A program made the translations under genes and the position numbers. This document shows positions 1,571 to 58,910 of a stretch of DNA of 64,000 bases, one piece after another; the stretch's first letter is position 1; every line of letters begins with the position of its first letter. The notes under the pieces were generated by a model. That model ran no database searches, was not told the origin of the DNA, and saw only the letters and a list, made by a program, of their open reading frames with translations. The DNA is from Escherichia phage FL04: sequence record PP358550; one strand, 5' to 3'.

Positions 1571-2599
1571 ATGATTTACTACGCAGATTATGAAATAGCG
1601 GAAAAAGCCATATACGGCGAACGAAATTTTAAACGGTTGCATACTAGCTCATTTACGCTGGTCTGTAGTTGTCCGATCTGCGGTGACTCAAAGAAAAATC
1701 ATACTCAAGCGCGATTCCGTATCTATACCTATAAGGATAGTTTGCGTTGCGGCTGTTTCAACTGTAACTACAATCAGCCGTTAGGTGAATTTCTCAAACA
1801 GTATAAGCCGGACCTATTCAGGGAATGGCTTATGGAACGACGGAAGGAACAAGGCGACCACAAGAACACCACGTTCAAGCCACTGAAAAAGGTAGAAAAG
1901 CCGGAGATTAAGAAAGTGCAAACATTGCCTTTCTGCGAGAGATTAGATACTCTTCCGGCTAATCATCCTATAATAAAGTATGTCAGTGATCGCTGTATTC
2001 CTCACGATAAATGGGATCTTCTGTATTTCACTAGAGAATGGCAAAAGGTAGCAAATCACATTAAGGCTGATACTTTCAAGAATCCACAACCTGAACCGCG
2101 TTTAGTGATTCCTATCTTTAACCGCGAGAACAAGATAGAATCCATTCAGGGGCGAGCATTGAGAAAGGATTACGGAAAGACCAAATATATGACGATTAAA
2201 ACTCATGAGTTAGCGAGTAAGGTCTATGGTCTTGAACGCGCCGATCCGAGTAAACCAGTGTATTTCTTAGAAGGTCCGATCGATTCATTGTTTATTGATA
2301 ACGGGTGTGCAATTACTGGCGGTACTTTGGGATTAGATGAAATCCCTTTCCCAGACCAGCGAGTGTTTGTACTTGATGCGGAACCACGGTCTGCCGATAC
2401 AATGCACCGACTGGAAAAGTTTATCAATGCAGGTGAAAAGATTGTATTGTGGGACCGTTGCCCGTGGCATTCTAAAGACGTTAACGCCATGATTCAGGAC
2501 GAGGGCGCTACACGCGACCAGATCATGGAATATATCAAAGAGAACACCGTACAAGGTCTGATGGCTAAAATGCGGTTTATGAAATATTGTAAATTTTAA
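1571..2599 (+). CDS. 61: DNA primase gp61
   Basis: 342 aa; N-terminal Zn-ribbon CPICGDSKK...CFNCNY, conserved PIIKYV, LEGPIDSLFI, KDVNAMI..GAT motifs matching T4 gp61 along its length. Confidence 0.93.
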   Translation: MIYYADYEIAEKAIYGERNFKRLHTSSFTLVCSCPICGDSKKNHTQARFRIYTYKDSLRCGCFNCNYNQPLGEFLKQYKPDLFREWLMERRKEQGDHKNTTFKPLKKVEKPEIKKVQTLPFCERLDTLPANHPIIKYVSDRCIPHDKWDLLYFTREWQKVANHIKADTFKNPQPEPRLVIPIFNRENKIESIQGRALRKDYGKTKYMTIKTHELASKVYGLERADPSKPVYFLEGPIDSLFIDNGCAITGGTLGLDEIPFPDQRVFVLDAEPRSADTMHRLEKFINAGEKIVLWDRCPWHSKDVNAMIQDEGATRDQIMEYIKENTVQGLMAKMRFMKYCKF

Positions 2600-2607
2600 T
2601 TAATGAG

Positions 2608-3132
2608 GTGAATATGTCAGAATTTAATTCTTGTGCTGGTCTGGTTAACGAAAAAGATATTAACGCGGCTATCGCCGCATATCATCACGCTATTGCAGAA
2701 GGTAAAGATCCGTTTCAGGTGATGCTAGAAATGCAAACTGGTTTGCAGGTTGCATTATCAGAAAAATTTGATTGGGTCCCAAATCCAACTAAGCTAGAGA
2801 CTTGCGGTGAAATGCTGGATTGGATGCAGCGGATGGATGACGCTATCGCAGACGAAACACGAGAGCTTTACACATCGCTGGGTGGAATGTCCAATGGTAA
2901 AGATGCAAGTGCAATCTGGAAAATGTGGAAAAAGAACCACGGGGAAGCGCGAGCGCGTAAATTCTCTGAACTGTCACCGGAAGATCAGCTTGAAGTGAAA
3001 TTTGAATTTGTGGATGCGATCCACTTCATTCTGTCAAAGATGATCCCGCTGGGTATTGACGCTCAAGAACTCTTTATTCTGTACTATCTGAAAAATGCTG
3101 AAAACTTCGCCCGTCAAGAACGCGGCTACTAA
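2608..3132 (+). CDS. hypothetical protein, possibly all-alpha NTP-pyrophosphatase-like (candidate dCTPase gp56 analogue)
   Basis: 174 aa; acidic ExxxE / ExxD patterns (ETCGEMLDWMQRMDDAIADETRE, EDQLEVKFEFVD); T4 gp56 is recalled as a similar length, but that match is from memory and unverified. Confidence 0.35.
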   Translation: MNMSEFNSCAGLVNEKDINAAIAAYHHAIAEGKDPFQVMLEMQTGLQVALSEKFDWVPNPTKLETCGEMLDWMQRMDDAIADETRELYTSLGGMSNGKDASAIWKMWKKNHGEARARKFSELSPEDQLEVKFEFVDAIHFILSKMIPLGIDAQELFILYYLKNAENFARQERGY

Positions 3133-3139
3133 AAATTAG

Positions 3140-3168
3140 TTGACACTACTCTATAATGGTTTTATTAT
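3140..3168 (+). promoter_or_regulatory. sigma70-type early promoter (TTGACA-17-TATTAT)
   Basis: -35 TTGACA 3140-3145, -10 TATTAT 3163-3168; immediately followed by hairpin plus T-run. Confidence 0.5.
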
Positions 3169-3198
3169 GCCTCCCGTCGAAAGATTGGAGGCTTTTTT
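3169..3198 (+). terminator. hairpin plus T-run (terminator/attenuator) whose 3-prime arm contains the GGAGG Shine-Dalgarno of the next gene
   Basis: GCCTCC...GGAGGC stem followed by TTTTTTATT, 4 nt before ATG 3202. Confidence 0.55.
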
Positions 3199-3201
3199 AT
3201 T

Positions 3202-3705
3202 ATGCAATTTACACCAGAAGAACTTAACATCATTGATGAATTGATGAACTCTAAAGAAAATATCGATATGTCGATCCTTAATGGATTGATCGAAAAGACT
3301 GAACGGTTAGTGCATCATGAAGCCTTGTATCGCGGTGTGAGCAAAAGAGAAGGCCGTAAGCTGGATACCTTAATTGTAGGTGATTCTTTCGTTGTAGATC
3401 GTCCTATGAGCTTTACGCCACTGCAATCAACAGCAGAGGACTTTGCAACCGATGTTTATGCAACAGGAAAGATTATTGCAATAAAACCTACCAAGCCTTG
3501 CATGAATTATTACGAACATGCTATTGACCGAGTGGTGTCTAAAGAGTATGACAATCCGACTACTCGACTGTCTTTGTATGCTATGTTGGCAGATGAGCGC
3601 GAGTGCATATACAAGACAGGGACGACCATGATCCTTGATGAGATCGAGGAAGTTTACGCGTGTAATGGCGATCTGATAGAGATTTACAAATTTTCTTTAA
3701 TTTAA
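3202..3705 (+). CDS. putative ADP-ribosyltransferase (ModA/ModB-like)
   Basis: 167 aa; R (LYRGVS), S-x-T (MSFTPLQST) and E-x-E (ADERECI) motifs in the order expected for R-S-E type ARTs. Confidence 0.4.
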   Translation: MQFTPEELNIIDELMNSKENIDMSILNGLIEKTERLVHHEALYRGVSKREGRKLDTLIVGDSFVVDRPMSFTPLQSTAEDFATDVYATGKIIAIKPTKPCMNYYEHAIDRVVSKEYDNPTTRLSLYAMLADERECIYKTGTTMILDEIEEVYACNGDLIEIYKFSLI

Positions 3706-3766: not shown

Positions 3767-4522
3767 ATGAAACTGTTTGCTTTTAAATCTAACGAAGAAT
3801 TGGCGCTGGTTGTTTTCCGGCTGAACTCTATCATGGCTGGCGCTTCACGTCGCAACAAAGACTTCTCTATGAGCTTAGTCACTGTTCGTAACATTTACCG
3901 TCAGACTCATTGTGTCTATTCAGGTGAGGCTTTCGGTGAAGGTGATGACGGACTCTCCTTAGAGCGCATTGATTGCAATCTGGGATATGTTGATGGCAAT
4001 GTAATTCCGGTTAAACTGAAATACAATTCTTTCCGTGGCAATCACACTATCGAATCTCTTAAAGAGATCCAAGAACTAGGAACTAACGGTAAACTTTCTG
4101 ATGATGAAATTGCCCTACGTGCGAAGTACATCGAGTGGATCGAACTTAACGAGAATCGCATCAAAAATCAGGAAATGGCAATCGAAGAAAAGAAATTAGC
4201 AATCGAGCGCCACAAAAAGCACAACGAACCGGAGAAAGCAGAGGCAGCCGAGCGAGCGATTAAAAATACTCTCTTCCGTATGGAAGAACGTTATCAGAAA
4301 ATTGCAGATCTCAAGCAAGCCCTTAGCGAAATCAACAAGAAAGAAGAAAAACTTAAGGCTATTGCAAACAATACCGAAATCGTGCTAAAATATACCAGCG
4401 TTTTGATTGAATCTCTTTCTAAGTATGAGAACTTAACGCCAGCACAAAAAGAACGCGTGAAATACGGGCTTCCGATTGATGCGTCGTGGATTGAATTGAT
4501 GAAAGCGAAGGTAGGTTTATAA
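3767..4522 (+). CDS. hypothetical protein with C-terminal coiled coil
   Basis: 251 aa; RBS AAGGAGA; N-terminal region has a degenerate HNH-like stretch (SLERIDCNLGYVDGNV) without His; C-terminal half is K/E-rich. Confidence 0.6.
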   Translation: MKLFAFKSNEELALVVFRLNSIMAGASRRNKDFSMSLVTVRNIYRQTHCVYSGEAFGEGDDGLSLERIDCNLGYVDGNVIPVKLKYNSFRGNHTIESLKEIQELGTNGKLSDDEIALRAKYIEWIELNENRIKNQEMAIEEKKLAIERHKKHNEPEKAEAAERAIKNTLFRMEERYQKIADLKQALSEINKKEEKLKAIANNTEIVLKYTSVLIESLSKYENLTPAQKERVKYGLPIDASWIELMKAKVGL

Positions 4523-4836
4523 TGCATGTATTTGCTGTATGTTATCGTGATAAAGACGGATTCTTTCAATACTCAGTGGACGCGAAAGGTCGCGTCCTAA
4601 CTTGCGAAACACATGATGCTGCGTTAGCGTCAATGTGTGATCAGATAGATTATTGTGAGAGTCTATTGGCGGGTGAACCGAAATACAAGGTTGTACCTAA
4701 ACGAAAATTTGGCATAATCCGGTCTTCTGAAATTGTTCGGGATGGTATAGAATATAAAATTCCTGAATATGAAAAAGAACGGGTACGGCGAGAACTCAAT
4801 ACTATCTGTGTTCGCAAGGTGAGGATTTTAGGATAA
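4522..4836 (+). CDS. hypothetical protein (104 aa)
   Basis: Start overlaps upstream stop (TAATG); stop overlaps dda start. Confidence 0.55.
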   Translation: MHVFAVCYRDKDGFFQYSVDAKGRVLTCETHDAALASMCDQIDYCESLLAGEPKYKVVPKRKFGIIRSSEIVRDGIEYKIPEYEKERVRRELNTICVRKVRILG

Positions 4837-6227
4837 TGAGCAGAGTATTAACTTTCGATATGTTAACAGACGGGCAAAAACATGCTTTTGATGTTCTAAT
4901 GAAACGCATTGAACAAAAGAAGCATACAACTGTCCGGGGTGCGGCGGGTACTGGTAAAACCGCAATGATGAAATTCATTGTTCAGGAAATGGTCCGCCGT
5001 GGTGTAACTGGTGTGGTTTTGGCAACGCCTACCCACCAGGCTAAAAAAGTTTTGAGTAAAGCGGTAGGTCGTCAAGCATTTACTTTACATGCACTACTGC
5101 GACTAAACCCGACCAACTATGAAGATACTCAAGTATTTGAGCAAAAAGATACTCCTAAGCTAGATGATGTTCAGATCATCATTGTTGATGAAGCGAGTAT
5201 GGTCGATAAGAAACTATTTGATATTCTCATGAAGAGTATCAACGGTCGAATTGTTATTATTGCCGTGGGTGATCTGTACCAGTTACGACCAGTTGATCCG
5301 AGCGGTGCAACGTCGATCTCTCCTTTCTTCACCGATGAAAGGTTTCAGAATGTAGAACTTACAGAGATTAAACGATCTAATGCGCCAATAATTGATGTGG
5401 CGACCGCTGTCCGTAATGGTAAATGGGTATTCGAAAAGCAGTGCGGTAACGAGGGTGTATTCCATAGCTCAACTCTGCCGGAGTTTATGAAGCATTATTT
5501 CGAAACCGTTAAAACGCCGGAAGACCTTCTAGAAAACCGTATTCTGGCCTACACTAACAAGAGCGTCGAAAAACTCAATGAAATTGTGCGTAAGCGCGTT
5601 TATAACACCGATGAACCAGTGATTGTAGATGAAATTCTGGTTACTCAGGAACCATTGATCGAATATCTGCGAGATGAACGCGGGAAGAAGATTCCCAATG
5701 TTATTTTTAACAATGGTGAGATGATCCGAGTTAAAGAGGTCATCCCGCGTGAATTTACATTACGTTGCACGGGTGTAGATCCGCAACCAGTTTTAGGATA
5801 TACTCTGAAAGTGGAAAGCGTCGATGATGACGAAGACAAAGAAATCCTAAATCAGAAAGTCGGTTTAGATGCAGTCGGAATAACTACAGATAAACCAGAT
5901 TTAGTAGAAATCAACATTCTGACAGAACAACGTCAGAAGAACATTTTCTCTATCTATCTGAATACGGTCGCCGGACAATATCGCGAAATGAAGAAAGAGA
6001 ATCCGAATTTTAAACCGGATTGGGATTCTTTCTGGACGATGAAGCGTATGTTCTTGAATGTAAAAGCATTACCAGCTTGCACTATTCATAAGTCACAAGG
6101 AATCAGCGTAGACCGCGTGTTCCTGTATACCCCTTGCATGTGTACAGATAATGTTGACTTTGAATTGGCAATGCAGTTATTATATGTGGGTGTTACCCGT
6201 GCACGGTATCGTGTAGACTATATTTGA
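4836..6227 (+). CDS. dda: DNA helicase Dda (SF1B)
   Basis: 463 aa; Walker A GAAGTGKT, IIVDEASMVD, VGDLYQLRPV, RSNAPIIDVAT, LYVGVTRARY; collinear with T4 Dda. Confidence 0.93.
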   Translation: MSRVLTFDMLTDGQKHAFDVLMKRIEQKKHTTVRGAAGTGKTAMMKFIVQEMVRRGVTGVVLATPTHQAKKVLSKAVGRQAFTLHALLRLNPTNYEDTQVFEQKDTPKLDDVQIIIVDEASMVDKKLFDILMKSINGRIVIIAVGDLYQLRPVDPSGATSISPFFTDERFQNVELTEIKRSNAPIIDVATAVRNGKWVFEKQCGNEGVFHSSTLPEFMKHYFETVKTPEDLLENRILAYTNKSVEKLNEIVRKRVYNTDEPVIVDEILVTQEPLIEYLRDERGKKIPNVIFNNGEMIRVKEVIPREFTLRCTGVDPQPVLGYTLKVESVDDDEDKEILNQKVGLDAVGITTDKPDLVEINILTEQRQKNIFSIYLNTVAGQYREMKKENPNFKPDWDSFWTMKRMFLNVKALPACTIHKSQGISVDRVFLYTPCMCTDNVDFELAMQLLYVGVTRARYRVDYI

Positions 6228-6238
6228 GGAATATTATT

Positions 6239-6406
6239 ATGATTATGCGAAGTATCCCAGAATTTGACGAAGTGAAAGTATCGTATCATGGCGAATGTGT
6301 ATACATGCATTTCAGGTGGGGTAACTACGGATGGGGTATATCTGGAATCAGCGAGGCCGATTGTATTAATTCCATGATAGATCACTTCACTAAGCGGGGT
6401 TACTGA
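6239..6406 (+). CDS. hypothetical small protein (55 aa)
   Basis: ATG 6239 with GAGGA 8 nt upstream; track ORF begins at an upstream TTG. Confidence 0.45.
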   Translation: MIMRSIPEFDEVKVSYHGECVYMHFRWGNYGWGISGISEADCINSMIDHFTKRGY

Positions 6407-6407
6407 T

Positions 6408-6647
6408 ATGATGATTATTGATGAACTTGATAAACTGTTATGTTTAGATGCCATCGTAACATTCCATCGTGATAAAATTCACGCTGATTATGCACAACAT
6501 GTAATGTCTTTTCGACATAAAGTACAGTCGGTACAGGCGATGGAAAGTTTACTGATTAATGTTTGCAATTATCGGTCAACCAAATGCAATCTAGTGTTAG
6601 ATAAAAACGATCTGGAGTTATTCCGGCACATCGCGGAGGATATTTAA
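6408..6647 (+). CDS. hypothetical protein (79 aa)
   Basis: Tightly packed between upstream ORF and dexA. Confidence 0.5.
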   Translation: MMIIDELDKLLCLDAIVTFHRDKIHADYAQHVMSFRHKVQSVQAMESLLINVCNYRSTKCNLVLDKNDLELFRHIAEDI

Positions 6648-6648
6648 A

Positions 6649-7317
6649 ATGCTTCCAGTGGATTTAATGATTGACTTTGAAAGTTTAGGTTATCCGCCTG
6701 ATGGGGCGGTTATCAATATGGCGGCAATCGGATTTAAAGAAGATCCGCACAATCCACCTACATTTAAAGAACTGGTCGACAATTCCTTTCTGGTAAAATT
6801 TGATATTCCTTCCCAGAAAGGTGTAAGGGTGTTTGATCATGGTGTGGTTGAATGGTGGAAGAATACCGCCTCAGAAGGCATGAGAAAGCAATTAATCACA
6901 AATGGTACGGAAGTATCAACTAAAGAAGGTTTAGCGCGTTTTAACGCATTCTGTGAAGCCGTAGGAGTAGATCCGGTTAAATCCGTAATGTGGTCACGCG
7001 GTAATGCGTTTGATATTCCGTTACTAGTTGATATGATCCGCCGTGCACACAATACACGAGAGACGTTCAGCCTTGAACCTGTGCGATTCTGGAATATCCG
7101 AGATGTTCGCACCGCCATTGAGCGTACATTGATGCATCGCGGGATGTGTGAGTGTCCGTTACCAATGGGTACGCTAGATGGTTTTATCGCACATGATGCA
7201 ATTCATGATTGCGCTCGCGATATTCTTATGCTAATCTATGCACAACGTTATGCTATGGGTCTGGAAGACCTACCAGAAAATCCAGATCCAAATTCAGTTA
7301 AGAAACAAAGGGGATAA
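6649..7317 (+). CDS. dexA: exonuclease A (DexA, DnaQ-like 3-prime to 5-prime exonuclease)
   Basis: 222 aa; N-terminal DFESLG exonuclease motif, later HDAIHDC; T4 synteny (dda-dexA). Confidence 0.8.
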   Translation: MLPVDLMIDFESLGYPPDGAVINMAAIGFKEDPHNPPTFKELVDNSFLVKFDIPSQKGVRVFDHGVVEWWKNTASEGMRKQLITNGTEVSTKEGLARFNAFCEAVGVDPVKSVMWSRGNAFDIPLLVDMIRRAHNTRETFSLEPVRFWNIRDVRTAIERTLMHRGMCECPLPMGTLDGFIAHDAIHDCARDILMLIYAQRYAMGLEDLPENPDPNSVKKQRG

Positions 7318-7318
7318 T

Positions 7319-7492
7319 ATGCCATTATACGATTATTCTTGTGAAGAACACGGTCAATTTCAGAAAATCCGCAAAATTTCCGAACGTGAAAAGGCAGAAT
7401 GCCCTGAATGTGGTAAAGAATGCAAACAGGGATTAACTGCCCCGCGCGGTATTAATGGCGGGTACTATGATAAAAATGTGCGCGTGTCATGA
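7319..7492 (+). CDS. FmdB-like zinc-ribbon protein (57 aa)
   Basis: MPLYDYSCEEHGQF...CPECG pattern typical of FmdB-family Zn-ribbons; not in track at this start (track ORF starts further upstream). Confidence 0.5.
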   Translation: MPLYDYSCEEHGQFQKIRKISEREKAECPECGKECKQGLTAPRGINGGYYDKNVRVS

Positions 7493-7595
7493 GTCATATA
7501 CTTGACAATCACTCAATTTTTAATATGATTGTTGCAGCCGTCTTTGTGGCGGTTGCAGTAAGTTATGGTTATGTTATGTATTGGAGAGAGAAAAA

Positions 7596-8324
7596 GTGAA
7601 CATCAAAAAGTTTATTGTTGATGTTCTGGAGGCGAAAAGCGGAAATAGACTAAACTCAAATCTTTTTAAAGAAAATAAAATTCCAGAAATGGAAAAATTG
7701 TATCCTGCGGAATTTCAGATTATAAGGAATGAGTTTAAGTTCTGTAATGGAGGTCTCAGAAATCAACAACCATATAACGAGGCTGTTTATAGATTGCGCC
7801 ACGGAATAACAGGAAGAGTTAAATGTGCAAGATGCCCAAATCCTGTAAATTATCATACATACTCTAGAGGCTATCATAAATTTTGCTGTTCTCGTTGCGC
7901 ATCGTTGGACCAGGCACAAAACATAAAGATTGAACGAGAATGCGCTAAATGTGGTAAACCATTTGTTGCAATAAACGTATCTCAAAAGTATTGTTCTGAT
8001 GAGTGTCGATTGTTCGAGAAGCGAGAGCGAGAACTAGATAGGCCATATCATCATGCCGAAAATGGTATAAAAATATCAAAAAGAGAAGCGTTAGAAATTT
8101 TAGGCAGAGTTGACAATTGCGAGATATGCGGTGTAAAATTCATAAATGAACGATGCGGCGTGAGAAAACGCCAAAAGTGGAAACATCTTGACCATAATCA
8201 TAAGACTGGTAAGATAAGAGGTGTTCTTTGTGGAAAATGTAATGCCGGATTAGGGATGTTCAAAGACGATCCTCAAAGATTATATGCGGCATTGGAATAC
8301 CTGAAACGAACTGACGGAGAATGA
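7596..8324 (+). CDS. Endonuclease VII-domain (HNH-like) nuclease with N-terminal Cys-rich zinc-ribbon repeats; putative homing endonuclease
   Basis: C-terminal HLDHNHKTGKIRGVLCGKCNAGLG matches Endo VII catalytic motif; several CxxC pairs upstream; probable GTG start at 7596 after GGAGAGAG (track starts at TTG 7581). Confidence 0.7.
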   Translation: MNIKKFIVDVLEAKSGNRLNSNLFKENKIPEMEKLYPAEFQIIRNEFKFCNGGLRNQQPYNEAVYRLRHGITGRVKCARCPNPVNYHTYSRGYHKFCCSRCASLDQAQNIKIERECAKCGKPFVAINVSQKYCSDECRLFEKRERELDRPYHHAENGIKISKREALEILGRVDNCEICGVKFINERCGVRKRQKWKHLDHNHKTGKIRGVLCGKCNAGLGMFKDDPQRLYAALEYLKRTDGE

Positions 8325-8330
8325 TATAAT

Positions 8331-10154
8331 ATGTCTGAATTTTTGCTGTTAGATGATCGCGCTCACTGTCTTAAGAGACCTTCAATGTACATCGGGTCAA
8401 CGACTTATGAATCACACAATCGTTTCCTATTTGGAAAATGGACCAAAGTTTCATACGTTCCTGGTCTAGTTAAAATTATTGATGAAATTATCGACAATTC
8501 TGTAGACGAGGCGATCCGCACTAATTTTGAGTACGCTAATGTTATTAGTGTGGATATAAAAGATAACATTGTGTCAGTAACAGATAATGGTCGCGGTATT
8601 CCGCAACATATTGTTACGACGCCAGAAGGGAAACAGATTCCACAACCAGTTGCTGCATGGACACGAGCTAAAGCAGGGTCTAACTTTGATGATACAAATC
8701 GTGTTACTATGGGTATGAATGGGATCGGAAGCGCGCTCACATCATTTTTCTCGTCCTGGTTTACTGGTGTGACGTGTGACGGAGAGAATGAACTGACCGT
8801 TCAATGTACCAATGGTGCAGAAAATATTAGCTGGTCATCTAAGCCGTCAAAACTGAAAGGAACTAAGGTTACGTTCTGCCCCGATTTCGATCATTTTGAA
8901 GGTATGATCATGTCACAAGAAATTTCAGATGTAATTTGTGACCGTATGTATTCCTTAAGTGTAATCTTTCCTAAGATCACGTTTAAGTTTAATGGCAAAA
9001 AGATAACCAGCAAATTCAAGGATTATGCTAAACTATACAATGATGATCCGTTTGTCATTGAAGATAAAAACTTTTCACTTGCCCTAGTTCCTGCGGTTGA
9101 AGGTGAAGGTTTTAAATCAGTATCATTTGCTAATGGTCTGTTTACCAAAAACGGGGGAACACACGTTGATTATGTGACAGATGATCTTTGTGAAGAGATT
9201 GTAAAACGAATCAAGAAAGAATATAAGGTTGATGTTACTAAAGCTGCGGTTAAGTCTGGATTGACCTGTATTCTTATTGTTCGTGAATTGCCAAACCTCC
9301 GTTTTGATTCACAGACAAAAGAACGATTGACTAATCCAACTGGTGATATCAAGCGTCATATTGATCTTGATTTTAAAAAACTGGCTAAAGTCATTGCGAA
9401 GAAAGAAAACATTATCATGCCTATTATTGCTGTAGTCCTGGCACGCAAAGAGGCAGCAGATAAAGCGGCAGCGACTAAGGCAGCAAAGGCAGCGAAACGG
9501 GCTAAGGTGGCAAAACACGTTAAAGCTAACCTTATTGGAACTGACGCAGAAACTACCCTGTTTTTGACGGAAGGTGATTCCGCGATCAACTATCTGATCT
9601 CTGTACGTGATCAAGATTTACATGGCGGTTTCCCGTTGCGAGGCAAAACTCTTACAACGTGGGAACAACCGGAGGCAAAGATCGTTAAGAACGCCGAAAT
9701 TTTTAACATCATGGCGATCACTGGCTTGCAATTTGGTGTTGATGCATTGGAAGTTATGCAATACAAAAATATTGCGATTATGACAGACGCTGATACTGAC
9801 GGGATTGGGTCTATTAAGCCTAGTCTGATCTCTTTCTTTGCACGTTGGCCTGAATTGTTCGAAGATGGACGAATCCGGTTTATCAAAACACCTATTATCA
9901 TTGCGGAACCAAAGAAAGGTGATGATGTTCGATGGTATTATGACCTAGAAGATTTTGAGAACGACCGAGATAATATCAAAGGTTATAGCATTCGATATAT
10001 CAAAGGGTTAGCATCGCTTACAGAATCAGATTATCATCGCGTGATCAACGATCCTGTAATGGAAATCATCACGTTACCGGAAAACTATAAAGAGCTATTC
10101 GATTTGCTCTATAGTGAAGATGCAGATCAGCGCAAAATTTGGATGCAATCATAA
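8331..10154 (+). CDS. 39: DNA topoisomerase II large subunit gp39 (unsplit, GyrB-like ATPase)
   Basis: 607 aa; Bergerat ATPase motifs (IDEIIDNSVDEAIR, DNGRGIP), Toprim region (LTEGDSA, MTDADTDG); length matches a fused gp39+gp60 as in T2-type phages. Confidence 0.93.
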   Translation: MSEFLLLDDRAHCLKRPSMYIGSTTYESHNRFLFGKWTKVSYVPGLVKIIDEIIDNSVDEAIRTNFEYANVISVDIKDNIVSVTDNGRGIPQHIVTTPEGKQIPQPVAAWTRAKAGSNFDDTNRVTMGMNGIGSALTSFFSSWFTGVTCDGENELTVQCTNGAENISWSSKPSKLKGTKVTFCPDFDHFEGMIMSQEISDVICDRMYSLSVIFPKITFKFNGKKITSKFKDYAKLYNDDPFVIEDKNFSLALVPAVEGEGFKSVSFANGLFTKNGGTHVDYVTDDLCEEIVKRIKKEYKVDVTKAAVKSGLTCILIVRELPNLRFDSQTKERLTNPTGDIKRHIDLDFKKLAKVIAKKENIIMPIIAVVLARKEAADKAAATKAAKAAKRAKVAKHVKANLIGTDAETTLFLTEGDSAINYLISVRDQDLHGGFPLRGKTLTTWEQPEAKIVKNAEIFNIMAITGLQFGVDALEVMQYKNIAIMTDADTDGIGSIKPSLISFFARWPELFEDGRIRFIKTPIIIAEPKKGDDVRWYYDLEDFENDRDNIKGYSIRYIKGLASLTESDYHRVINDPVMEIITLPENYKELFDLLYSEDADQRKIWMQS

Positions 10155-36872: not shown

Positions 36873-37847
36873 GTGAATATGTTTAAACGCCAAGATTCTT
36901 CCAAACTGCAAGCTCAACTGGCCGCACTGAAAGGTGGCAACGGTTTCTCCAAAGAAGATCCGAAAGAGTGGAAGATTAAGACTGATGCAGCAGGTAACGG
37001 TGAAGCCCTGATTCGCTTCCTGCCGTCTAAGACAGAAGACGGTCTGCCGATTGTGAAACTGGTAAACCATTCCTTCAAAGTTAATGGCAAATGGTATTGG
37101 GAAAACTGCTCCAGCACCCACGGTGATTTTGATTCTTGCCCTGTGTGCAAATATATTAACGAAAAAGACTTGTACAATACCGATAAAACCGAATGGCAAC
37201 TGATTAAGCGTAAAGCGTCTTACTACGCAAACATTCTGGTACTGAAAGATCCTCAAGCACCAGAAAATGAAGGTAAGGTATTCAAATTCCGCTTCGGTCA
37301 GAAAATTTATGATAAGATCGTTGCAATGGTGAACGTGAATACCGATATGGGCGAAGTTCCGGTAGATGTAACTTGTGTGTTCTCTGGTGCTAACTTCCTC
37401 CTGAAAGCTAAGAAGGTTGATAAACACCAGAACTATGATGATTCTCGTTTCATGCAGCAATCACAGCTTCCGAAAATTGAAGACGAAGCATATCAGAAAT
37501 ATCTGATGGAAAACATGGTTGATCTGAGTGAGATTGTAGCGCCTAGCCAGTTTAAACCGTTCGATGAACTGGAAACCAAATTTAAGAAAACTATGGGCGT
37601 TTCTATGGTAGCTGGTGCTGCGGCTTCCAGTGCTGCGGCAGCGATTAACAGCCAGCTTGACGATTTTGACGCACAGATGAATGCATTCGATTCTGGTATG
37701 ACCGCAGCTAGCACTGTAGTTGGTATTAACGCAGCTAGCACGGCGTTAGATTCTTCCGCTGATGACCTGATGGCATCTCTGGACCTGGGTGGCGGTACTT
37801 CCTCCGCTTCTGATCTGGATGATCTTGACGCTCTGTTAGGGATGTAA
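36873..37847 (+). CDS. 32: single-stranded DNA-binding protein gp32
   Basis: 324 aa; MFKR...EWK.K.D.AGNG.A.IRFLPSK, NHSFK.NGKWY.E.CSSTHGD.DSCPVC.YI...[19 protein letters not shown], acidic C-terminus (DLDDLDALL). Confidence 0.95.
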
Positions 37848-37858: not shown

Positions 37859-37882
37859 GCCTCCCTCCGGGGAGGCTTTTTT
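37859..37882 (+). terminator. rho-independent terminator after gene 32
   Basis: GCCTCCC-TCCG-GGGAGGC hairpin plus TTTTTT. Confidence 0.75.
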
Positions 37883-37908
37883 ATTGCCTAAAATTTTATG
37901 AAAAGGTG

Positions 37909-37936
37909 TTGACATGCTTATGTGGTAATGTATAAT
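37909..37936 (+). promoter_or_regulatory. early promoter cassette (TTGACA-16-TATAAT, type TGTATAATGCACA)
   Basis: Followed by conserved CATCGAAACAA-GGAGGA initiation region; same cassette repeated at 39170 and 39553. Confidence 0.6.
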
Positions 37937-37966
37937 GCACACATCGAAACAATGGAGGATAAAAAT

Positions 37967-39181
37967 ATGTTAGTACGTCAAGCGCATGAAATTGAATGGA
38001 CTAAGGAGAAACATAATTGTAGAGCGAAAAGCCCAACAGATTTTTATGGTAAAATTTTAGAAATATGTAAAACAGAAAATTTAGTTTTTGTCGGCTTTGT
38101 TGGGGAATGGGAAGGAAACAAAACAAAAATAAAACTTATCTGCGAACATGGTCATGAATGGATATGTTCGATAGATAAATTTGTAAGTAAAGGAACAAGA
38201 TGTTCTCATAAACAATGTAAAGGTAAACGAATATCTAAAAAATTGTCTATATCCGAAACGGAATACAAAACGAGAATTTTAGAAATATGTGAAACTGAAA
38301 ATCTAATTTTCTTAGGTTTTGTTGGTGAATGGAAAGGGTGTGATACTAAAATTCGCATAAAATGCAAATACGGTCATGAATGGGATGTATCTATATATAG
38401 CTTCACAAAAATGAATACCAGATGCCCTACATGCGCAGGAAAGAACAAGACAAAAGACGAATACAAAACGAGAATTTTAGAAATATGTGAAACTGAAAAT
38501 CTAATTTTCTTAGGTTTTGTTGGTGAATGGAAAGGATGCCGCACAAAAATAAAACTTAGCTGCAAACACGGTCATGAATGGATATCTTCCATATTACATT
38601 TTGTGTATCAAAATACTCGCTGTCCTGTATGTGTTGGTAGATTGTCTATCGACGATAGAATGATACAGATTAATCAAGTTTGCAATTCTTTAGGTTATGT
38701 AATAATTAAGATCCACGAAGAATGGAAAAACACAGAAACTAAAATTGATGTTAAATGTTTATGTGATTATATATGGACAACAACAATACATAGAGTCATA
38801 CATGGGACTACAGGTTGCAGAAAGTGTGCTACATATGGATACAATACAAAAAAATCGGGGACTCTTTATATACAGAAATTAACCAACGATGATTCCTTTG
38901 TTGGTGTGAAATTTGGAATAACAAACAGAGACACGAATGAACGAATGAAAAACCAATCATCAAAGTCTAAATTCGACCATGAGATCTTTTATGAATTGAC
39001 TTTACAAGACGGTCAAAAGATCTTAGAATTAGAGAACAAGATCAAGGAAGCGATGAAAGGTAAAACTTCCTATATCTCAAAAGAAGATATGCCGGATGGC
39101 TGGACCGAAACAGTAGCGCCGTCTGAATTGAGCACTATCATGTATATCGTAAAAACTTTTGAAAAAGAGTTGACAGCGTAA
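37967..39181 (+). CDS. T5orf172 (GIY-YIG-like) domain protein with four N-terminal zinc-ribbon repeats; putative nuclease/homing endonuclease-like
   Basis: 404 aa; four ~70-aa repeats each with C..HGHEW ... RC..C; C-terminal GTLYIQKL...VGVKFGITNRDTNERMK pattern. Confidence 0.65.
   Translation: MLVRQAHEIEWTKEKHNCRAKSPTDFYGKILEICKTENLVFVGFVGEWEGNKTKIKLICEHGHEWICSIDKFVSKGTRCSHKQCKGKRISKKLSISETEYKTRILEICETENLIFLGFVGEWKGCDTKIRIKCKYGHEWDVSIYSFTKMNTRCPTCAGKNKTKDEYKTRILEICETENLIFLGFVGEWKGCRTKIKLSCKHGHEWISSILHFVYQNTRCPVCVGRLSIDDRMIQINQVCNSLGYVIIKIHEEWKNTETKIDVKCLCDYIWTTTIHRVIHGTTGCRKCATYGYNTKKSGTLYIQKLTNDDSFVGVKFGITNRDTNERMKNQSSKSKFDHEIFYELTLQDGQKILELENKIKEAMKGKTSYISKEDMPDGWTETVAPSELSTIMYIVKTFEKELTA
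38261..38547 (+). repeat. intragenic tandem direct repeat (two near-identical ~78-bp copies 210 bp apart, 38261-38337 and 38471-38547)
   Basis: GAATACAAAACGAGAATTTTAGAAATATGTGAAACTGAAAATCTAATTTTCTTAGGTTTTGTTGGTGAATGGAAAGG present twice; more diverged copy upstream. Confidence 0.8.
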
Positions 39182-39197
39182 CGCAATAGTGTATAAT
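39170..39197 (+). promoter_or_regulatory. early promoter cassette (TTGACA-16-TATAAT)
   Basis: Overlaps 3-prime end of upstream CDS; followed by CATATCGAAACAACGGAGGA. Confidence 0.6.
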
Positions 39198-39226
39198 GCA
39201 CATATCGAAACAACGGAGGATTAACA

Positions 39227-40620: not shown

Positions 40621-40889
40621 TGAAAGTCGGTATTATTCAATTATGGACGGCTACCAGTGAAAACTACGCAGTAGCCGTAGATTATTACGGTTTACAATAT
40701 CTCTATGATGAAGCGAGCGCATCATGGCTTCCTGTGCAAGAAAATAGCGATATCTCAAGACCTGCTACTATATTCGACCGTGGCGTTGTCTTTATCGATA
40801 TTGACGAGACAGTAGCAAAACTGCGTAAGAAAGCAATCAATAAGAAAAAGGTGATGTGGGATGAAAGAATATTTGAAACTATTGCGTGA
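40620..40889 (+). CDS. hypothetical protein (89 aa)
   Basis: ATG 40620 overlapping upstream stop; 3-prime end overlaps td start by 29 nt. Confidence 0.45.
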   Translation: MKVGIIQLWTATSENYAVAVDYYGLQYLYDEASASWLPVQENSDISRPATIFDRGVVFIDIDETVAKLRKKAINKKKVMWDERIFETIA

Positions 40890-42093
40890 TGTTCTTGATA
40901 ATGGATGGCCTCGTGAAGACCGAACTGGGGTAGGTACGCTATCTAAATTCGGCGCAGAGATGCGAATTGATTTAAGCAAGGGTTTCCCATTACTGACCAC
41001 TAAAAAGATGGCTACAGCCTCTGTAATTGGCGAATTGCTATGGTTTATGGAGGGATCACTTGACCGCCGTCGCTTACAGGAAATTACACGCGGTAAGTTT
41101 GACGAAGAAGCCTTCGACATTTGGCGCGGCAACTGTCTTGATATGAAAGAAAAGAATCCTTTGCGATTCAATGGTTATAATGTCGGCAATATGTATGGTA
41201 TGGCATGGCGACGCAAACCGATTCATCCACACGGTGAAATCAAAATTAAGCGCGTTAAGAGCAAATATGCACATACATTTAAGCACCCGTGGGTAGAAGA
41301 CTTTACGCCAACCAATGAAACAGAAGACCGTTTATGTGCTATCTGGCGTGGTATGCGTTATGAAGAGTTTGATTCTGAATATAATCAATTCTTAGTAGCA
41401 GACCACTGGAAGACTCAATCTAATTTTGTTAATGATGCATATTGCTTGTGGGGATTCCAGGAATGGGTAGATGATGGTTATTTCGGTTATCTGCTTGATA
41501 GTGATTATCTGGGCGGGGATATTTTAGCGCCAGATACCACGATCTTTGCTAGTATGGACGTAGACACATCGAGCACTAAAGACGATGAAGAATATGTCTA
41601 TCGACCGAAGATTTGGGAAGACCAGTTACAAAACGTGATTGAACAAATTAAAAACAATCCAACGGATCGACGTATCATCATTGACTCATGGAACGTACAA
41701 GGAACACATAATGCTGTATTAGGTGTATGTCATCCTTTCGTGCAATTCTACGTCAATGAAGGTAAACTGTCTTGTATGTGGTTTCAGCGAAGCGTAGACA
41801 GCTTTTTAGGCTTGCCCTTTAACGTCGCCAGCTATGCGCTGTTAACTCACATCATAGCGAAAATGTGTGATCTTGAGGTAGGAGAACTGATTTTCTCTGG
41901 TGGAGATACTCACATTTACAAAAACCATTTTGATCAAGTTATGGAACAGTTAAGCCGTGTTCCGTTTGATAAACCAACGATTGAGTTGCCGGAATTTGAA
42001 TCTTTAGATGAGGTATTGACAAAGACTCCGAAAGACTTTAAAATTCACAACTATCAAAGCCATCCAGCAATCACCGCTCAAATGGCAGTATAA
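40861..42093 (+). CDS. td: thymidylate synthase with large internal in-frame insertion
   Basis: 410 aa; TS motifs DRTG.GT, LLWF, YG.AWR, DRRIII.SWN, active-site CHPFVQFYV, RSVDSFLGLPFN.ASYALLTHIIA, GGDTHIY; residues about 119-254 have no counterpart in canonical TS. Confidence 0.88.
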   Translation: MKEYLKLLRDVLDNGWPREDRTGVGTLSKFGAEMRIDLSKGFPLLTTKKMATASVIGELLWFMEGSLDRRRLQEITRGKFDEEAFDIWRGNCLDMKEKNPLRFNGYNVGNMYGMAWRRKPIHPHGEIKIKRVKSKYAHTFKHPWVEDFTPTNETEDRLCAIWRGMRYEEFDSEYNQFLVADHWKTQSNFVNDAYCLWGFQEWVDDGYFGYLLDSDYLGGDILAPDTTIFASMDVDTSSTKDDEEYVYRPKIWEDQLQNVIEQIKNNPTDRRIIIDSWNVQGTHNAVLGVCHPFVQFYVNEGKLSCMWFQRSVDSFLGLPFNVASYALLTHIIAKMCDLEVGELIFSGGDTHIYKNHFDQVMEQLSRVPFDKPTIELPEFESLDEVLTKTPKDFKIHNYQSHPAITAQMAV

Positions 42094-47975: not shown

Positions 47976-48437
47976 ATGATTAATGAGCTAATAGAAAACT
48001 ATGGATTCGTTAAATATTCATGTTTAGAGTGTAAAGATGGTGATGTGATTCTGCCGCCTCAGAAGAACCGTTTAAATGTTCTTTACGCTATTGTTGTTGA
48101 TGATGAACTGGTATACATTGGTCAGACTGTCAATCTCAGAAAGCGGATCAATTATTACCGGACTAGCATTAACAGACAAACACCAACAGCGGATACTCGC
48201 AAGAGTAAGAATATTCATAAGGCGCTAGAGGAAGGTAAGACAGTAACATTCTATTACCGACAGTGCTTTGAGTTGTACATCGAGAATCCAACGGGTAAGG
48301 ATATTATAAGCACTGCCGATATCGAAGAACCTGTTTTGATCACCAAATTTAAACCAGAATGGAACACAAATTATGTCAACAAAAGAAAACAACAAAAAAG
48401 TTTTAGCATTGTTCAAAAATCTGATGACACTATGTGA
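47976..48437 (+). CDS. GIY-YIG-like endonuclease domain protein
   Basis: 153 aa; NVLYAIVVDDELVYIGQTVNLRKRINYY resembles GIY-(N10)-YIG...R motif; 3-prime end overlaps rnlA. Confidence 0.55.
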   Translation: MINELIENYGFVKYSCLECKDGDVILPPQKNRLNVLYAIVVDDELVYIGQTVNLRKRINYYRTSINRQTPTADTRKSKNIHKALEEGKTVTFYYRQCFELYIENPTGKDIISTADIEEPVLITKFKPEWNTNYVNKRKQQKSFSIVQKSDDTM

Positions 48438-49542
48438 CGGATCTGATACGTTCTATTACAAAGATGAAATTACGGCGATGCAAACCCGTATGCGCATTTT
48501 TAGTTATCTGTACTTGAGCAAACCGGAAATGTGGAATAAACCAGATGCGTTAGAGTGTCGCGGGATCATGTTTGAAATTGACGATAAAGGTCGTCCGGTC
48601 CGCATCGCATCTCGTCCTATGGAGAAGTTTTTTAATTTGGGTGAGAATGATCGCGCTCGCTTTAAGCCGGAAGATGTGGAAATGGTCATGGACAAAATGG
48701 ACGGTAGTCTAGTAAGCACATACATTGATAACGGCTATGTTCAGTTGAAGTCTAAAGCGGCCTTGTACTCAAGCCAGGCAGAGAGAGCAAACGGTCTTCT
48801 GTATTCAGAGAAGTATGCGGATCTACGCGCTAAGATTGCTGATATTGGGTCTGATTATACTTTCAACTTTGAATATACAGCGCCCAGCAACCGAATTGTT
48901 GTAGAATATTCTGAACCGTCGCTAACACTTCTGAATGTACGCCATAACGTCACAGGAGAGTACGTACCGCATCAAATGCTATTTTCTGACGCAATCCTAC
49001 GTCCTCATCTGGTAAATGCGTTACAGGTTGATTCAGCGCGTTTTAGCAATATTCTTGATGAAGTTCGGACCGCAGAAGGTATCGAAGGAATTGTTGCACG
49101 CACTAAAGACGGTCAAATGTTCAAAGTGAAGAGTGAATGGTATATTGGTGTGCATAACATTAAAAACACATCGATGTTTCCTAATAACCTGATCTACTAT
49201 GTCGTAGAAAGCGAAACCGATGATTTGCGTGCTGCATATGAAGGCGAACCGGAAGCACTGGAACGAATCGAGCTATTCGAGGAAGCATTCAGGTCTATTC
49301 TTCGCAATGCCTTCACGACAGCAACAGAATTTTATAACGCACACGCGGGAGAAGACAGAAAGACATATGCATCAAATGCGACTATCGAATCACGTAAACA
49401 TGGTGATGCACAAGCATATATTTTCATGTGTCTGATGATTGCATTTGATGGTCTTGATTATGACCGTATTCTGGATTCAATGAAAACTTACTATCTACGG
49501 AATTATAAGAAACTTATTCCGGCTGATAAGATTGATTGGTAA
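48373..49542 (+). CDS. rnlA: RNA ligase 1
   Basis: 389 aa; conserved blocks ALECRGIMFE, PVRIASRPMEKFFNL, active-site DKMDGSLVSTY, NFE.TAP.NRIV, LLNVR.N.TGEY, KDRKTYA, FLKNYKKFIP-like C-terminus, matching T4 Rnl1. Confidence 0.92.
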   Translation: MSTKENNKKVLALFKNLMTLCDGSDTFYYKDEITAMQTRMRIFSYLYLSKPEMWNKPDALECRGIMFEIDDKGRPVRIASRPMEKFFNLGENDRARFKPEDVEMVMDKMDGSLVSTYIDNGYVQLKSKAALYSSQAERANGLLYSEKYADLRAKIADIGSDYTFNFEYTAPSNRIVVEYSEPSLTLLNVRHNVTGEYVPHQMLFSDAILRPHLVNALQVDSARFSNILDEVRTAEGIEGIVARTKDGQMFKVKSEWYIGVHNIKNTSMFPNNLIYYVVESETDDLRAAYEGEPEALERIELFEEAFRSILRNAFTTATEFYNAHAGEDRKTYASNATIESRKHGDAQAYIFMCLMIAFDGLDYDRILDSMKTYYLRNYKKLIPADKIDW

Positions 49543-53357: not shown

Positions 53358-54840
53358 TATCATTAATCAGCTTGCAGCAACAGACAAAACATCGCTGAAA
53401 GAAAAGATTCTGAAAGAATCCGCGAGCAATGAAACGCTGAAAGAATGCTTTTATCTGGCATATTGCAAACAGGTTACGTTTGGCGTAAAGAAATACGATA
53501 AACCGTCTCGCTATTCGTCTGTATTGTCTTTATCCGGTGCATTACAGGTCTTTAAAAATAAACTTGCCACGCGTCAAGTAACTGGTAATGCAGCATTACA
53601 GCTAGTTACCGATACTCTGACTTGCTTGTCAGAGGATGATGCTAAAGTTGCAATGATGGTCCTGAATCGTGATCTGGAATGCGGCTGTTCCGCTACCACT
53701 GCAAACAAGGTATGGAAGAAACTGATCCCCCAGCAACCGTGCCACCTTGCATCGTCATGTTCTGATAAGACTATTGCTAATATCAAGTATCCGGCGTATG
53801 CACAACTTAAAAGCGATGGCGCTCGTGGTATGGCTGATATTGACGGGGAAACATTAGCAATCTATACCCGCTCAGGTAATACCTATCAAGGGCTTGATGA
53901 TTTGTTTGCGGTTTTAGAGCGTCTACGAGGCCGTGGAATTGTTCTAGATGGCGAATTGGTATATATGCCTACCCTTTCGCAAACACCAGCGCAGAACTTC
54001 GTTGAAAGCGTTTATGATGGTACTCTGTCATGGATATTTGAAGAAGAGGAAATGCCATTAACGCCAGTAGCGGAAGCAGTGAAAGAATCCGTTGTTGCAG
54101 ATCGTCAGACCGGAAATGGTATCCTCAACAAATCACTTAAAGGAACTATTCCAAAAGAAGAAGCCCAATGTATTGTTTACACTGTCTGGGATGTTATCGA
54201 CCGTGATGTGTATTACGGAAACGAGAAAGCAACGAAGAAATATAAAGATCGATTCGAAGAACTAAAACAGATTGTTGAAGAACTTAACGATCCTCGTGTT
54301 CAGATCATAGAAAACACTGTAGTTAACAATATCGATGAAGCTCGCGAAGTATATCATCGTTATGTCAACATGGGCTTAGAAGGTATTATCCTTAAAAATT
54401 TACATGGTGTATTTGAAGATCGCCGTAGTAAAGATCAGGTTAAATTTAAAGAAGTGATTGACTTCGACGCGGAAATTGTTGATGTATATCCGCATAGTAA
54501 AGACCCCAATAAGGTAGGCGGTTTTACTGTCCGTAGTGCGTGCGGACGAATGATGACTAACACCGGATCGGGATTAACCGACACTACAACCGAAAAAGGT
54601 GATGATGGTACTGAACGTGTAATTCCGTTCGATCGTCGAAATGAACTCGACCGAGAAATGTTATGGGCTGACCGTCATAACCTGATTGGAAAAGTCATTG
54701 AGATGACATGCAACGGGTACATTCGCAGCAAATCACGTAAAGAAGATGAACCGGAGTTCTCTTTATTTCTCCCAATCATCAAACGTATTCGCTACGACAA
54801 GACCACTGCAAATACAGTAAAAGAGGTATTCGATGTGTGA
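53338..54840 (+). CDS. 30: ATP-dependent DNA ligase gp30
   Basis: 500 aa; adenylation motif I lysine in AQLKSDGARG, downstream nucleotidyltransferase motifs; N-terminus similar to T4 ligase. Confidence 0.92.
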   Translation: MKMSILNIINQLAATDKTSLKEKILKESASNETLKECFYLAYCKQVTFGVKKYDKPSRYSSVLSLSGALQVFKNKLATRQVTGNAALQLVTDTLTCLSEDDAKVAMMVLNRDLECGCSATTANKVWKKLIPQQPCHLASSCSDKTIANIKYPAYAQLKSDGARGMADIDGETLAIYTRSGNTYQGLDDLFAVLERLRGRGIVLDGELVYMPTLSQTPAQNFVESVYDGTLSWIFEEEEMPLTPVAEAVKESVVADRQTGNGILNKSLKGTIPKEEAQCIVYTVWDVIDRDVYYGNEKATKKYKDRFEELKQIVEELNDPRVQIIENTVVNNIDEAREVYHRYVNMGLEGIILKNLHGVFEDRRSKDQVKFKEVIDFDAEIVDVYPHSKDPNKVGGFTVRSACGRMMTNTGSGLTDTTTEKGDDGTERVIPFDRRNELDREMLWADRHNLIGKVIEMTCNGYIRSKSRKEDEPEFSLFLPIIKRIRYDKTTANTVKEVFDV

Positions 54841-55309
54841 TAATGAAGGGGCGAAAGCCCCTAAACCTAAAAAATTGTCAAAGAAAGAGCAACGCCAGAT
54901 CCTGAAAATGAAATATGGTGGACGTTGTGCCTATTGTGGTGAGGAATTAGGGGATCGCTGGCACGCAGACCACATCAAACCAGTATTGCGACGCTCAAAG
55001 GTAGTCTATGATGAAAATGGACGAATTGTCCGTAATGATGATGGATCGTGGAAGTATAAGGTTGTAGGAATGCATAAACCGGAGCATGATATACTTGATA
55101 ACATGAATCCGGCATGTGTGCAATGCAATCTTTATAAAAGCTGCATGGGCTTAGAATCCTGGCGTAAGTGTATACGCGAGAACTTCCAGAAGTACATTCA
55201 GCGCAATATGGGATTGCGAGCGGCTAAACGCTTTGGCTTGCTGTCAATCCACGACCAGCCAGTAGAATTTTATTTCGAAAAGTACGATCGCGAGCATCAA
55301 GAAAAATAA
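54833..55309 (+). CDS. HNH endonuclease
   Basis: 158 aa; CAYCGEEL...WHADHIKP...NMNPACVQCN HNH motif; start overlaps ligase stop. Confidence 0.7.
   Translation: MCDNEGAKAPKPKKLSKKEQRQILKMKYGGRCAYCGEELGDRWHADHIKPVLRRSKVVYDENGRIVRNDDGSWKYKVVGMHKPEHDILDNMNPACVQCNLYKSCMGLESWRKCIRENFQKYIQRNMGLRAAKRFGLLSIHDQPVEFYFEKYDREHQEK
54848..54861 (+). other. GC hairpin GGGGC-GAAA-GCCCC within the first codons of the HNH gene
   Basis: Same core as hairpins at 30017 and 42099. Confidence 0.45.
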
Positions 55310-58735: not shown

Positions 58736-58910
58736 TAACACCACAACTACACGGTAAAGAGATTTGCGATCTTACTTGGGAAGAGTTGGTCATGTATCGC
58801 GACACCTACAAATGGTTTGAATCCATGAAAGAATTTGTAGCAGCAGTACGAGAAGAAATGAGCATTCGCCAGTATGCGGACGCATATATTGAAAAGGTAA
58901 GCACACTATG
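58731..58910 (+). CDS. hypothetical small protein (59 aa)
   Basis: Overlapping start/stop with neighbours; not in track. Confidence 0.4.

Follow-up and report, generated by a model that had tools for sequence, protein, structure and literature searches.

Why do some phages of the genus Krischvirus carry an additional endonuclease gene immediately ahead of gene 39, which encodes the large subunit of topoisomerase II, when most of their close relatives do without it? The question is raised by a stretch of 64,000 nucleotides (nt) of Escherichia phage FL04 (PP358550), here called the window, in which a gene with an Endo VII motif occupies positions 7596-8324 on the plus strand. An earlier note on this DNA had placed it, together with three further nuclease genes, at positions typical of homing-type mobile genes. 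For the gene at 7596-8324 this reading stood, as it is present in 12 of 58 relatives, is accompanied by a linked divergent tract in its neighbour and has homologues at the same place, making three lineages in all; it fell for two of the other genes, denA and an HNH gene, which all 58 relatives possess. We consider it probable that the gene encodes a free-standing DHHRN homing endonuclease (F-CphI/Hpy99I clade) that would cut endonuclease-free alleles of gene 39 near their 5' end.

A search with a 5-kb query around the gene assigned the window to Krischvirus, the RB49-like T4-type coliphages, and recovered 58 phage records at 90-99% identity. These records form the reference sample for the presence/absence counts; they are phylogenetically non-independent, some non-carriers being entered twice (GenBank and RefSeq) and MIZ2/3/6 and MIZ4/5 being near-duplicates. 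By tblastn the endonuclease gene is optional: it was found at full length and 96.7-98.8% amino-acid identity in 12 of the 58 (MIZ2-6, G5211, G2248, Skers, JK32, PHB13, JEP8 and E26), and the other 46 match the region without about 740 nt. About nine different phages stand behind the 12 carrier records; the countries recorded for them are Russia, Germany, the USA and China. Carriers E26 and JEP8 and the non-carrier GEC-3S are all named as, or assigned to, the species gec3s.

Alignment with RB49 and G37-3 resolves the difference into a 752-nt cassette (7579-8330, plus strand) that replaces 13 nt (AAGAGGTTTAATA) of the endonuclease-free alleles. The match to RB49 and G37-3 runs as far as 7578, the junctions are identical in carriers, and the left flank is 97-100% identical across all loci compared. 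The gene order is dda, two small open reading frames (ORFs), dexA (6649-7317), a gp39.2-like zinc-ribbon ORF (7319-7492), a hydrophobic ORF of 36 amino acids homologous to RB49p006.1 (7489-7599, plus strand, of uncertain status as a gene), the endonuclease gene, and gene 39 (8331-10154, plus strand). The last is of the fused 60+39 type and encodes 607 amino acids, identified by the Pfam matches DNA_gyraseB, HATPase_c and Toprim and by the RB49 annotation. The cassette provides the last six codons and the stop of the 36-residue ORF, which ends in ...YVMYWREKK here and in ...YVMKRFNNE in RB49, and it finishes with a GGAG ribosome-binding site 6 nt from the start of gene 39. As it brings both a new tail and stop for the ORF on its left and a GGAG for the gene on its right, neither neighbouring gene is disrupted.

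The difference between carriers and most non-carriers extends into gene 39 itself. Compared with RB49, the window differs at 4 of the 690 nt left of the junction, at 171 of the first 690 nt of gene 39 (8331-9020; about 25%, synonymous divergence (dS) 1.54, non-synonymous divergence (dN) 0.15) and at 29 of the 1134 nt in the remainder of the gene (dS 0.116, dN 0.002). The last clustered difference from RB49 is at 9014. We call haplotype A the endonuclease-linked divergent tract so delimited, the first 684 nt of gene 39 (8331-9014, plus strand), which encode the N-terminal GHKL ATPase part of the protein; 41 of the first 230 residues of gp39 differ from the RB49 allele. The most diverged 100-nt block (0.64) is the very start of the gene.

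A search with the first 660 nt of gene 39 gave a bimodal result, with 13 records at 92.6-99.7% and 45 at 77-78.6%. Haplotype A is found in all 12 carriers and in the non-carrier G37-3, and the other 45 non-carriers have what we call haplotype B; the first 53 nt of the gene cannot be aligned by BLAST between the two. The association of gene and haplotype is strong (Fisher p=1.5e-11, on records that are not independent) and is a correlation at the level of the population. In sequence beyond the tract (94-99.8% identity) the carriers do not stand apart from the non-carriers but mingle with them. Flanks so intermixed, together with complete linkage of the gene to the tract, suggest that the two act as one cassette moving through freely recombining backgrounds. 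G37-3, nearly identical to the carrier G5211 downstream, has an RB49-type junction through codon 3 and haplotype A from there on, a state to be expected if a resistant allele had lost the gene or if a crossover had occurred between gene and tract.

Haplotype A itself comes in sub-types. Over 8331-9014, comparison of the window with E26 shows 50 differences, all of them synonymous (dS 0.44), and the corresponding dS values are 0.12 in the adjacent endonuclease gene and 0.14 in the rest of gene 39.

The same arrangement is repeated outside Krischvirus. In the Gaprivervirus phages VR7, VR26 and RZ, gene 39 is immediately preceded by a gene for a full-length homologue of the endonuclease (41-48% identity), and TH15 also has a homologue (43% identity); the majority of Gaprivervirus records have no such gene. 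In VR26 and RZ the first approximately 1100 nt of gene 39 are 55-81% identical to those of the non-carriers VR25 and SP18, and beyond that point identity is 92-100%. Between VR7 and VR25, 19 of the first 60 nt of gene 39 differ, with three amino-acid changes, against 57 of the remaining 1770 (p=3e-13). A third lineage is represented by a 169-kb metagenomic T4-like contig, whose homologue (61% identity) again immediately precedes gene 39 and stops 6 nt short of it, with the sequence of the endonuclease/gene 39 junction conserved. A search for the source of haplotype A in other known genera yielded no donor, the best matches outside Krischvirus being only about 66-67% identical, and the haplotype A protein is no nearer to the metagenomic lineage or to Gaprivervirus than is that of haplotype B.

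Could such a pattern arise with no homing at all? The gene might be a non-homing accessory nuclease carried along by ordinary homologous recombination or by PeSL-type cassette recombination, the divergent tract being the flank of an import from a diverged relative. Shuffling of small cassettes at promoter/stem-loop motifs is documented in RB49 and phi1 (Arbiol et al., 2010; PMC2839356), and a consensus scan detects a promoter-like site (TTGACA-16-TATGAT) followed by a 14-pair stem-loop at 7502-7561 on the plus strand, 17 nt left of the cassette junction, in carriers and non-carriers alike. Other pieces nearby are also variable, namely the block 6200-6619 and an optional HNH_3 gene in JSE, G5211 and G37-3, and the gp32-adjacent endonuclease gene of the same window is a repeat-flanked cassette (see below for all three). 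However, no direct repeats flank the cassette 7579-8330 beyond short chance matches, the promoter/stem-loop motif is present on its left side only, and the right boundary falls within an essential gene, at no motif. Recombination of this sort also accounts poorly for the presence of one gene family directly ahead of gene 39 in three lineages that share only 52-67% identity in gp39, for a spike of divergence starting exactly at the gene 39 start in two of these lineages, and for the inclusion of a proven homing member in the family. We regard it as an unlikely explanation.

What does the protein tell us? The ORF that ends at 8324 on the plus strand can be read from a TTG at 7581 (247 amino acids) or from a GTG at 7596 (242 amino acids). 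The GTG start gives a 729-nt gene of the extent annotated in GenBank for MIZ6, G5211 and E26, and overlaps the stop of the upstream 36-residue ORF as GTGA. Pfam Endonuclease_7 (PF02945) matches residues 178-242 of the 247-residue form with E=5.6e-16 and 58.7 bits (cut-off 23.6), and the ORF also has matches among the endonuclease VII families of PHROG. The beta-beta-alpha-metal nuclease core (8118-8243, plus strand) was delimited by motif alignment and comprises the zinc ligands C175, C178, C212 and C215 and residues D199, H200, H202, R208 and N216. The DHHRN motif (CX2-4C...D-H-x-H...R...CX2C-N) is therefore complete, and its residues are invariant or nearly so among the homologues aligned. 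This Endo VII-type motif was defined by Fang et al. (2018), and its residues are essential in F-CphI (PMC6083498).

Ahead of the core lie two zinc ribbons, both on the plus strand. The first (7824-7898; C77, C80, C98, C101) is at least 90% conserved, including in short family members of 141-195 amino acids, and zinc-ribbon entries of Pfam match it below threshold only; the second (7941-8009; C116, C119, C134, C138) occurs only in the long forms that adjoin gene 39. The earlier note's description of an Endo VII-motif gene with a non-ATG start and Cys-rich Zn-ribbons between dexA and gp39 is borne out by the GTG start, the PF02945 match and the two Cys4 clusters, with the qualification that two small ORFs intervene. 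A word-indexed protein search returned nine homologues, giving a shallow alignment of ten sequences for AlphaFold; the resulting model has a mean predicted local distance difference test score (pLDDT) of 71 and is confident only for residues of approximately 110-242, the second zinc ribbon scoring 81-85. None of the 12 Krischvirus copies is truncated, and comparison with E26 gives a dN/dS of about 0.1. Taken together, the intact copies and the purifying selection shown by the low dN/dS indicate a working protein. By its motif, by the C-terminal position of that motif and by the place that Fang et al. gave to the homologue VR7 gp6, the protein is a predicted member of the DHHRN endonuclease clade.

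The names of the Pfam and PHROG families, and GenBank products such as 'endonuclease VII' and 'putative recombination endonuclease', would instead suggest that the phage has an additional Holliday-junction resolvase, paralogous to T4 gp49 (Endo VII), for recombination and packaging. Yet T4 Endo VII (1e7d) aligns only at residues 195-225, a metal-binding core of about 31 residues (E=0.005), and the gp49 dimerisation domain was not detected in the endonuclease protein. The motif lies at the C-terminus, in agreement with the endonuclease clade that Fang et al. described, whereas that of resolvases is N-terminal. The Krischvirus phages ECD7 and Delraymugoa each encode, at another locus, a full-length gp49 orthologue with about 44% identity to that of T4, and 46 of the 58 relatives manage without the endonuclease gene. 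Because the motif is C-terminal and Krischvirus genomes have their own gp49, we conclude that this gene is not the phage's resolvase, and give the resolvase explanation almost no credence.

The nearest solved relative points in another direction. The best match is Hpy99I (3fc3, E=1.8e-9), which was also the sole significant Foldseek match in the PDB (E=3e-4), and Hpy99I is a type II restriction enzyme. The gene could accordingly serve competitor exclusion, its product cutting the DNA of co-infecting relatives or of the host in a restriction-like manner, with no need for self-copying; marker exclusion by T4 homing enzymes is a related and known outcome (PMC2988022). Against this, no methyltransferase gene is adjacent, the neighbours being the 36-residue ORF and gene 39, and a tight, repeated linkage to the 5' end of one gene, together with a linked tract, is what self-propagation predicts. 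Exclusion and homing are moreover compatible with each other. As an account to replace homing, we therefore hold exclusion to be highly improbable.

We thus favour a homing endonuclease, which would act as follows. A carrier and a phage lacking the gene would co-infect one cell; the zinc-ribbon N-terminal half of the protein would bind the 5' end of the endonuclease-free gene 39, most likely its first 60 nt or so, and the C-terminal beta-beta-alpha-metal nuclease would cleave this allele. Recombination-dependent repair would then transfer the endonuclease gene and part of the adjoining donor gene 39 to the cleaved genome, and the carrier's own gene 39, diverged at the target, would escape cutting. 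Intronless homing with co-conversion is established for the Seg and Mob enzymes of T4 (reviewed in PMC2988022), and the anatomy of linkage at gene 39 matches this known T-even pattern. What the sequences show directly is the domain composition, the complete set of catalytic residues, the patchy distribution, the linked divergent tract and the use of one site in three lineages; cleavage, target position and repair-mediated spread are what we infer from them. The candidate recognition and cleavage site in endonuclease-free alleles corresponds to 8331-8390 on the plus strand, where the window would hold the resistant version. The extreme 5' end of gene 39 is suggested because divergence within Krischvirus peaks there, because the first 53 nt are unalignable between the haplotypes, and because VR7 and VR25 differ almost only there. 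The codons concerned include those for ...KRxGMYIGS..., a conserved motif of the topoisomerase ATPase.

Several points weigh against this interpretation. The association between gene and tract could reflect a single ancestral import followed by linkage, among 58 records that do not count independently. With 41 amino-acid differences, the tract is an imported foreign segment more than a resistant target altered by point mutation. Endonuclease identity between lineages (61% and 44-48%) roughly follows that of gp39 (about 65% and about 55-62%), a parallel to be expected no less from long vertical co-inheritance and repeated losses than from recent transfer. G37-3, which has haplotype A and no gene, is expected after loss, yet it shows that the tract can stand alone. 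Finally, the N-terminal third of the structure model has low confidence.

A further possibility is that the gene drives more than itself, spreading a functionally distinct N-terminal topoisomerase ATPase domain through Krischvirus populations. What suggests it is that the linked tract differs at 41 of the first 230 residues, and that its two sub-types are separated by synonymous changes with none at the amino-acid level. The linked allele might itself be selected, for instance because it withstands a host toxin or defence aimed at the GHKL domain, and the synonymous excess beside the gene might record a continuing contest between cleavage specificity and target resistance. We think it improbable that the gene has this wider role.

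Some details of the endonuclease gene deserve mention in their own right. A promoter-like sequence (TTGACA-18-TAAAAT, 11 of 12 matches) lies inside it at 8110-8139, about 190 nt before gene 39, and as a consensus match only it could have restored transcription of gene 39 after insertion. In MIZ4 (locus 2492-3325) and MIZ5, a 2-nt deletion (AG) in a GGAGAGAG run upstream of the GTG start fuses the 36-residue hydrophobic ORF in frame to the endonuclease, giving a product of 277 amino acids, which could be a real membrane-tethered variant or an artefact of sequencing or slippage. Positions 7396-7417 and 7937-7958 match at 20 of 22 nt, aligning zinc-ribbon codons of the gp39.2-like ORF with those of ribbon 2 in the endonuclease, a likeness probably due to chance or to convergence of the motif. 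A likeness of the first zinc ribbon to the gyrase inhibitor YacG fell below threshold in Pfam (E=0.017) and gave E=1.5 in Foldseek, and was set aside as a generic treble-clef resemblance. Translational control by a hairpin at 7598-7626 was likewise discarded, its minimum free energy of -9.8 kcal/mol being like that of shuffled sequences (z=-1.4), with the ribosome-binding site and start codon uncovered. No T4-type late promoter (TATAAATA) was found near the gene; there are three in the window, all elsewhere, which is fewer than expected by chance. Rfam gave no match to a group I intron or other RNA element at the gathering threshold anywhere in the window.

Variation was also noted on both sides of this locus. 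The small early ORFs at 6224-6406 and 6408-6647, homologues of RB49p010 and RB49p009, are 56-83% identical to those of the nine Krischvirus loci compared; the sequence on both sides of block 6200-6619 is 94-100% identical to the same nine loci, so that the block is a private variant. Directly after gene 39, a different optional gene of 564 nt is present in JSE (4420-4983), G5211 (5159-5722) and G37-3 (4598-5161; all in locus coordinates), with an HNH_3 domain noted in G5211, and is absent from the window and from RB49. With this gene at the 3' side in some phages, gene 39 can stand between two endonuclease-like genes.

The other three nuclease genes flagged in the window proved to be of different kinds. 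The GIY-YIG-like gene at 47976-48437 (plus strand) was correctly seen to overlap the start of rnlA (48373-49542), by 65 nt, but it is denA, the core gene for endonuclease II. It matches PDB 2wsh over residues 3-134 (E=2.6e-38) and Pfam GIY-YIG at 22.5 bits, just under the cut-off of 22.6, and it is annotated as denA next to rnlA in RB49, with an identical overlap. The gene is not polymorphic, being present in all 58 Krischvirus records and in 1,094 other T4-like records. The HNH gene at 54833-55309 (plus strand; Pfam HNH at 26.9 bits against 21.4, PHROG 2118) does overlap the stop of the DNA ligase gene 30, by 8 nt. It corresponds to RB49p212, shows the same overlap in RB49, and is fixed in the genus, occurring in 58 of 58 records at 95.7-99.3% nucleotide identity, a distribution that is not sporadic. 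The argument that overlap with neighbours betrays recent insertion consequently fails where the overlaps are clearest, since denA/rnlA and ligase/HNH involve fixed genes with the same arrangement in RB49.

The fourth gene (37967-39181, plus strand) follows gp32 (36873-37847) and is variable. Profile matches reveal four CapR/treble-clef repeats and a C-terminal T5orf172-like domain; the whole matches PHROG 681 'endonuclease' (E=3e-93), and the C-terminal 119 amino acids match Pfam T5orf172 at 17.7 bits (E=0.0054), below the cut-off of 20. A gene after gp32 is thus present as the earlier note had stated, its naming as T5orf172 corresponds to a sub-threshold match, and there is no overlap with the neighbours. 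We place its start at the ATG at 37967, after GGAGGA, as the likelier one because the alternatives at 37922 (ORF listing) and 37928 (FL37 annotation) both fall within a -10 box. Full-length copies are found only in FL37 and PTE-Eco09, RB49 has a different repeat domain, and the gene is absent from E26, JSE, KFS-EC and others.

This gene is bracketed by an 82-nt direct repeat on the plus strand. The left copy (37882-37963) comprises a promoter (TTGACA-17-TATAAT) and leader, and the right copy (39143-39224), 76% identical to it, begins within the 3' part of the endonuclease gene; in E26 the repeat occurs once and the gp32-adjacent endonuclease gene is missing. A terminator hairpin lies upstream of the gene. 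Bracketing repeats, with one copy at the empty site, are the marks of the PeSL-type cassettes of Arbiol et al. (2010; PMC2839356), and recombination between the repeats would be enough to account for gain and loss. No co-conversion-like tract was seen in gene 32, the flanks being 95-100% identical to E26, which lacks the gene. By the refuting condition set in the earlier note, presence in all relatives, recent mobility is not supported for denA and the HNH gene.

Three observations concern other parts of these genomes. E26 has an additional gene of about 590 nt (locus 811-1404), annotated as a 'Fis family transcriptional regulator', between genes 59 and 32, where the window has none. The window encodes at 58908-59426 a protein of 172 amino acids with a GmrSD_N (DUF262) domain that matches only the N-terminal half of PHROG 1583 (a profile of 417 positions), and which may represent a truncated or split defence-type nuclease gene. 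The thymidylate synthase (40861-42093) has 410 amino acids, residues 1-82 and 110-264 of E. coli ThyA aligning to 1-82 and 254-410; about 145 additional residues stand in frame at the position of the small domain, the RB49 td gene is equally long, and no intron model matched.

The DHHRN family, its homing role in F-CphI and the prediction for VR7 gp6 are already known, as are the GenBank labels 'endonuclease VII' and 'putative endonuclease' in Krischvirus. New here are the population pattern of 12 among 58 records, the 684-nt linked tract, its replicate in Gaprivervirus, the third lineage and the inferred position of the target. If our interpretation is true, the locus provides a clean natural example of intronless homing for DHHRN enzymes, the least-studied family of homing endonucleases, with one characterised member. 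It would also provide a ready test system in culturable coliphages, either the near-isogenic pair G5211 and G37-3 or any carrier against RB49, with a short predicted target of about 60 nt and with Gaprivervirus as a second lineage showing the same pattern. Genes of this kind would reshuffle part of an essential replication gene, which bears on the reading of phage phylogenies and mosaicism and on therapy cocktails made up of related phages. The concept is an established one that will not surprise a specialist, and the practical benefit is modest; the locus is a tractable test case.

How, then, does this gene compare with known systems? The closest counterpart is VR7 gp6, with its relatives in VR26, RZ and TH15, which shares the N-terminal helices, the two zinc ribbons and the C-terminal DHHRN core in the same order, and for which Fang et al. 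(2018; PMC6083498) predicted a role as free-standing homing enzyme within the endonuclease clade. In Gaprivervirus, however, gene 39 is the split T4-type N-terminal part, the insertion follows gene 39.1 rather than the 36-residue ORF, and the linked tract measures about 60 nt in VR7 and about 1100 nt in VR26 and RZ, against 684 nt here. F-CphI (ORF177 of cyanophage S-PM2), the founding DHHRN member, is a homing endonuclease (Fang et al., 2018; PMC6083498) and likewise has a C-terminal Endo VII-type motif and a free-standing gene that adjoins its target gene in a T4-like myovirus.

Hpy99I shares the nuclease domain at about 30% identity and is a sequence-specific cutter of duplex DNA, but it is bacterial, is paired with a methyltransferase, has another N-terminal DNA-binding part and has no known role in mobility. 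T4 endonuclease VII (gp49) has the same zinc-bound beta-beta-alpha-metal core with the D-H-x-H...R...N residues; unlike the protein described here, it is a structure-specific resolvase with an N-terminal motif and a C-terminal dimerisation domain, and it is universally present. In genomic setting the best parallels are SegF, SegG, MobE and MobA of T4, whose genes are also intergenic, sporadic and placed beside conserved genes of DNA metabolism, with co-conversion of the neighbour (PMC2988022). These enzymes differ in being GIY-YIG or HNH proteins. The gene for MobA, moreover, lies midway through the topoisomerase reading frame, where 39 and 60 are split; the gene described here adjoins the 5' end of an unsplit gene. 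Such elements are already known at the topoisomerase gene, in the form of MobA and the gene 60 bypass cassette.

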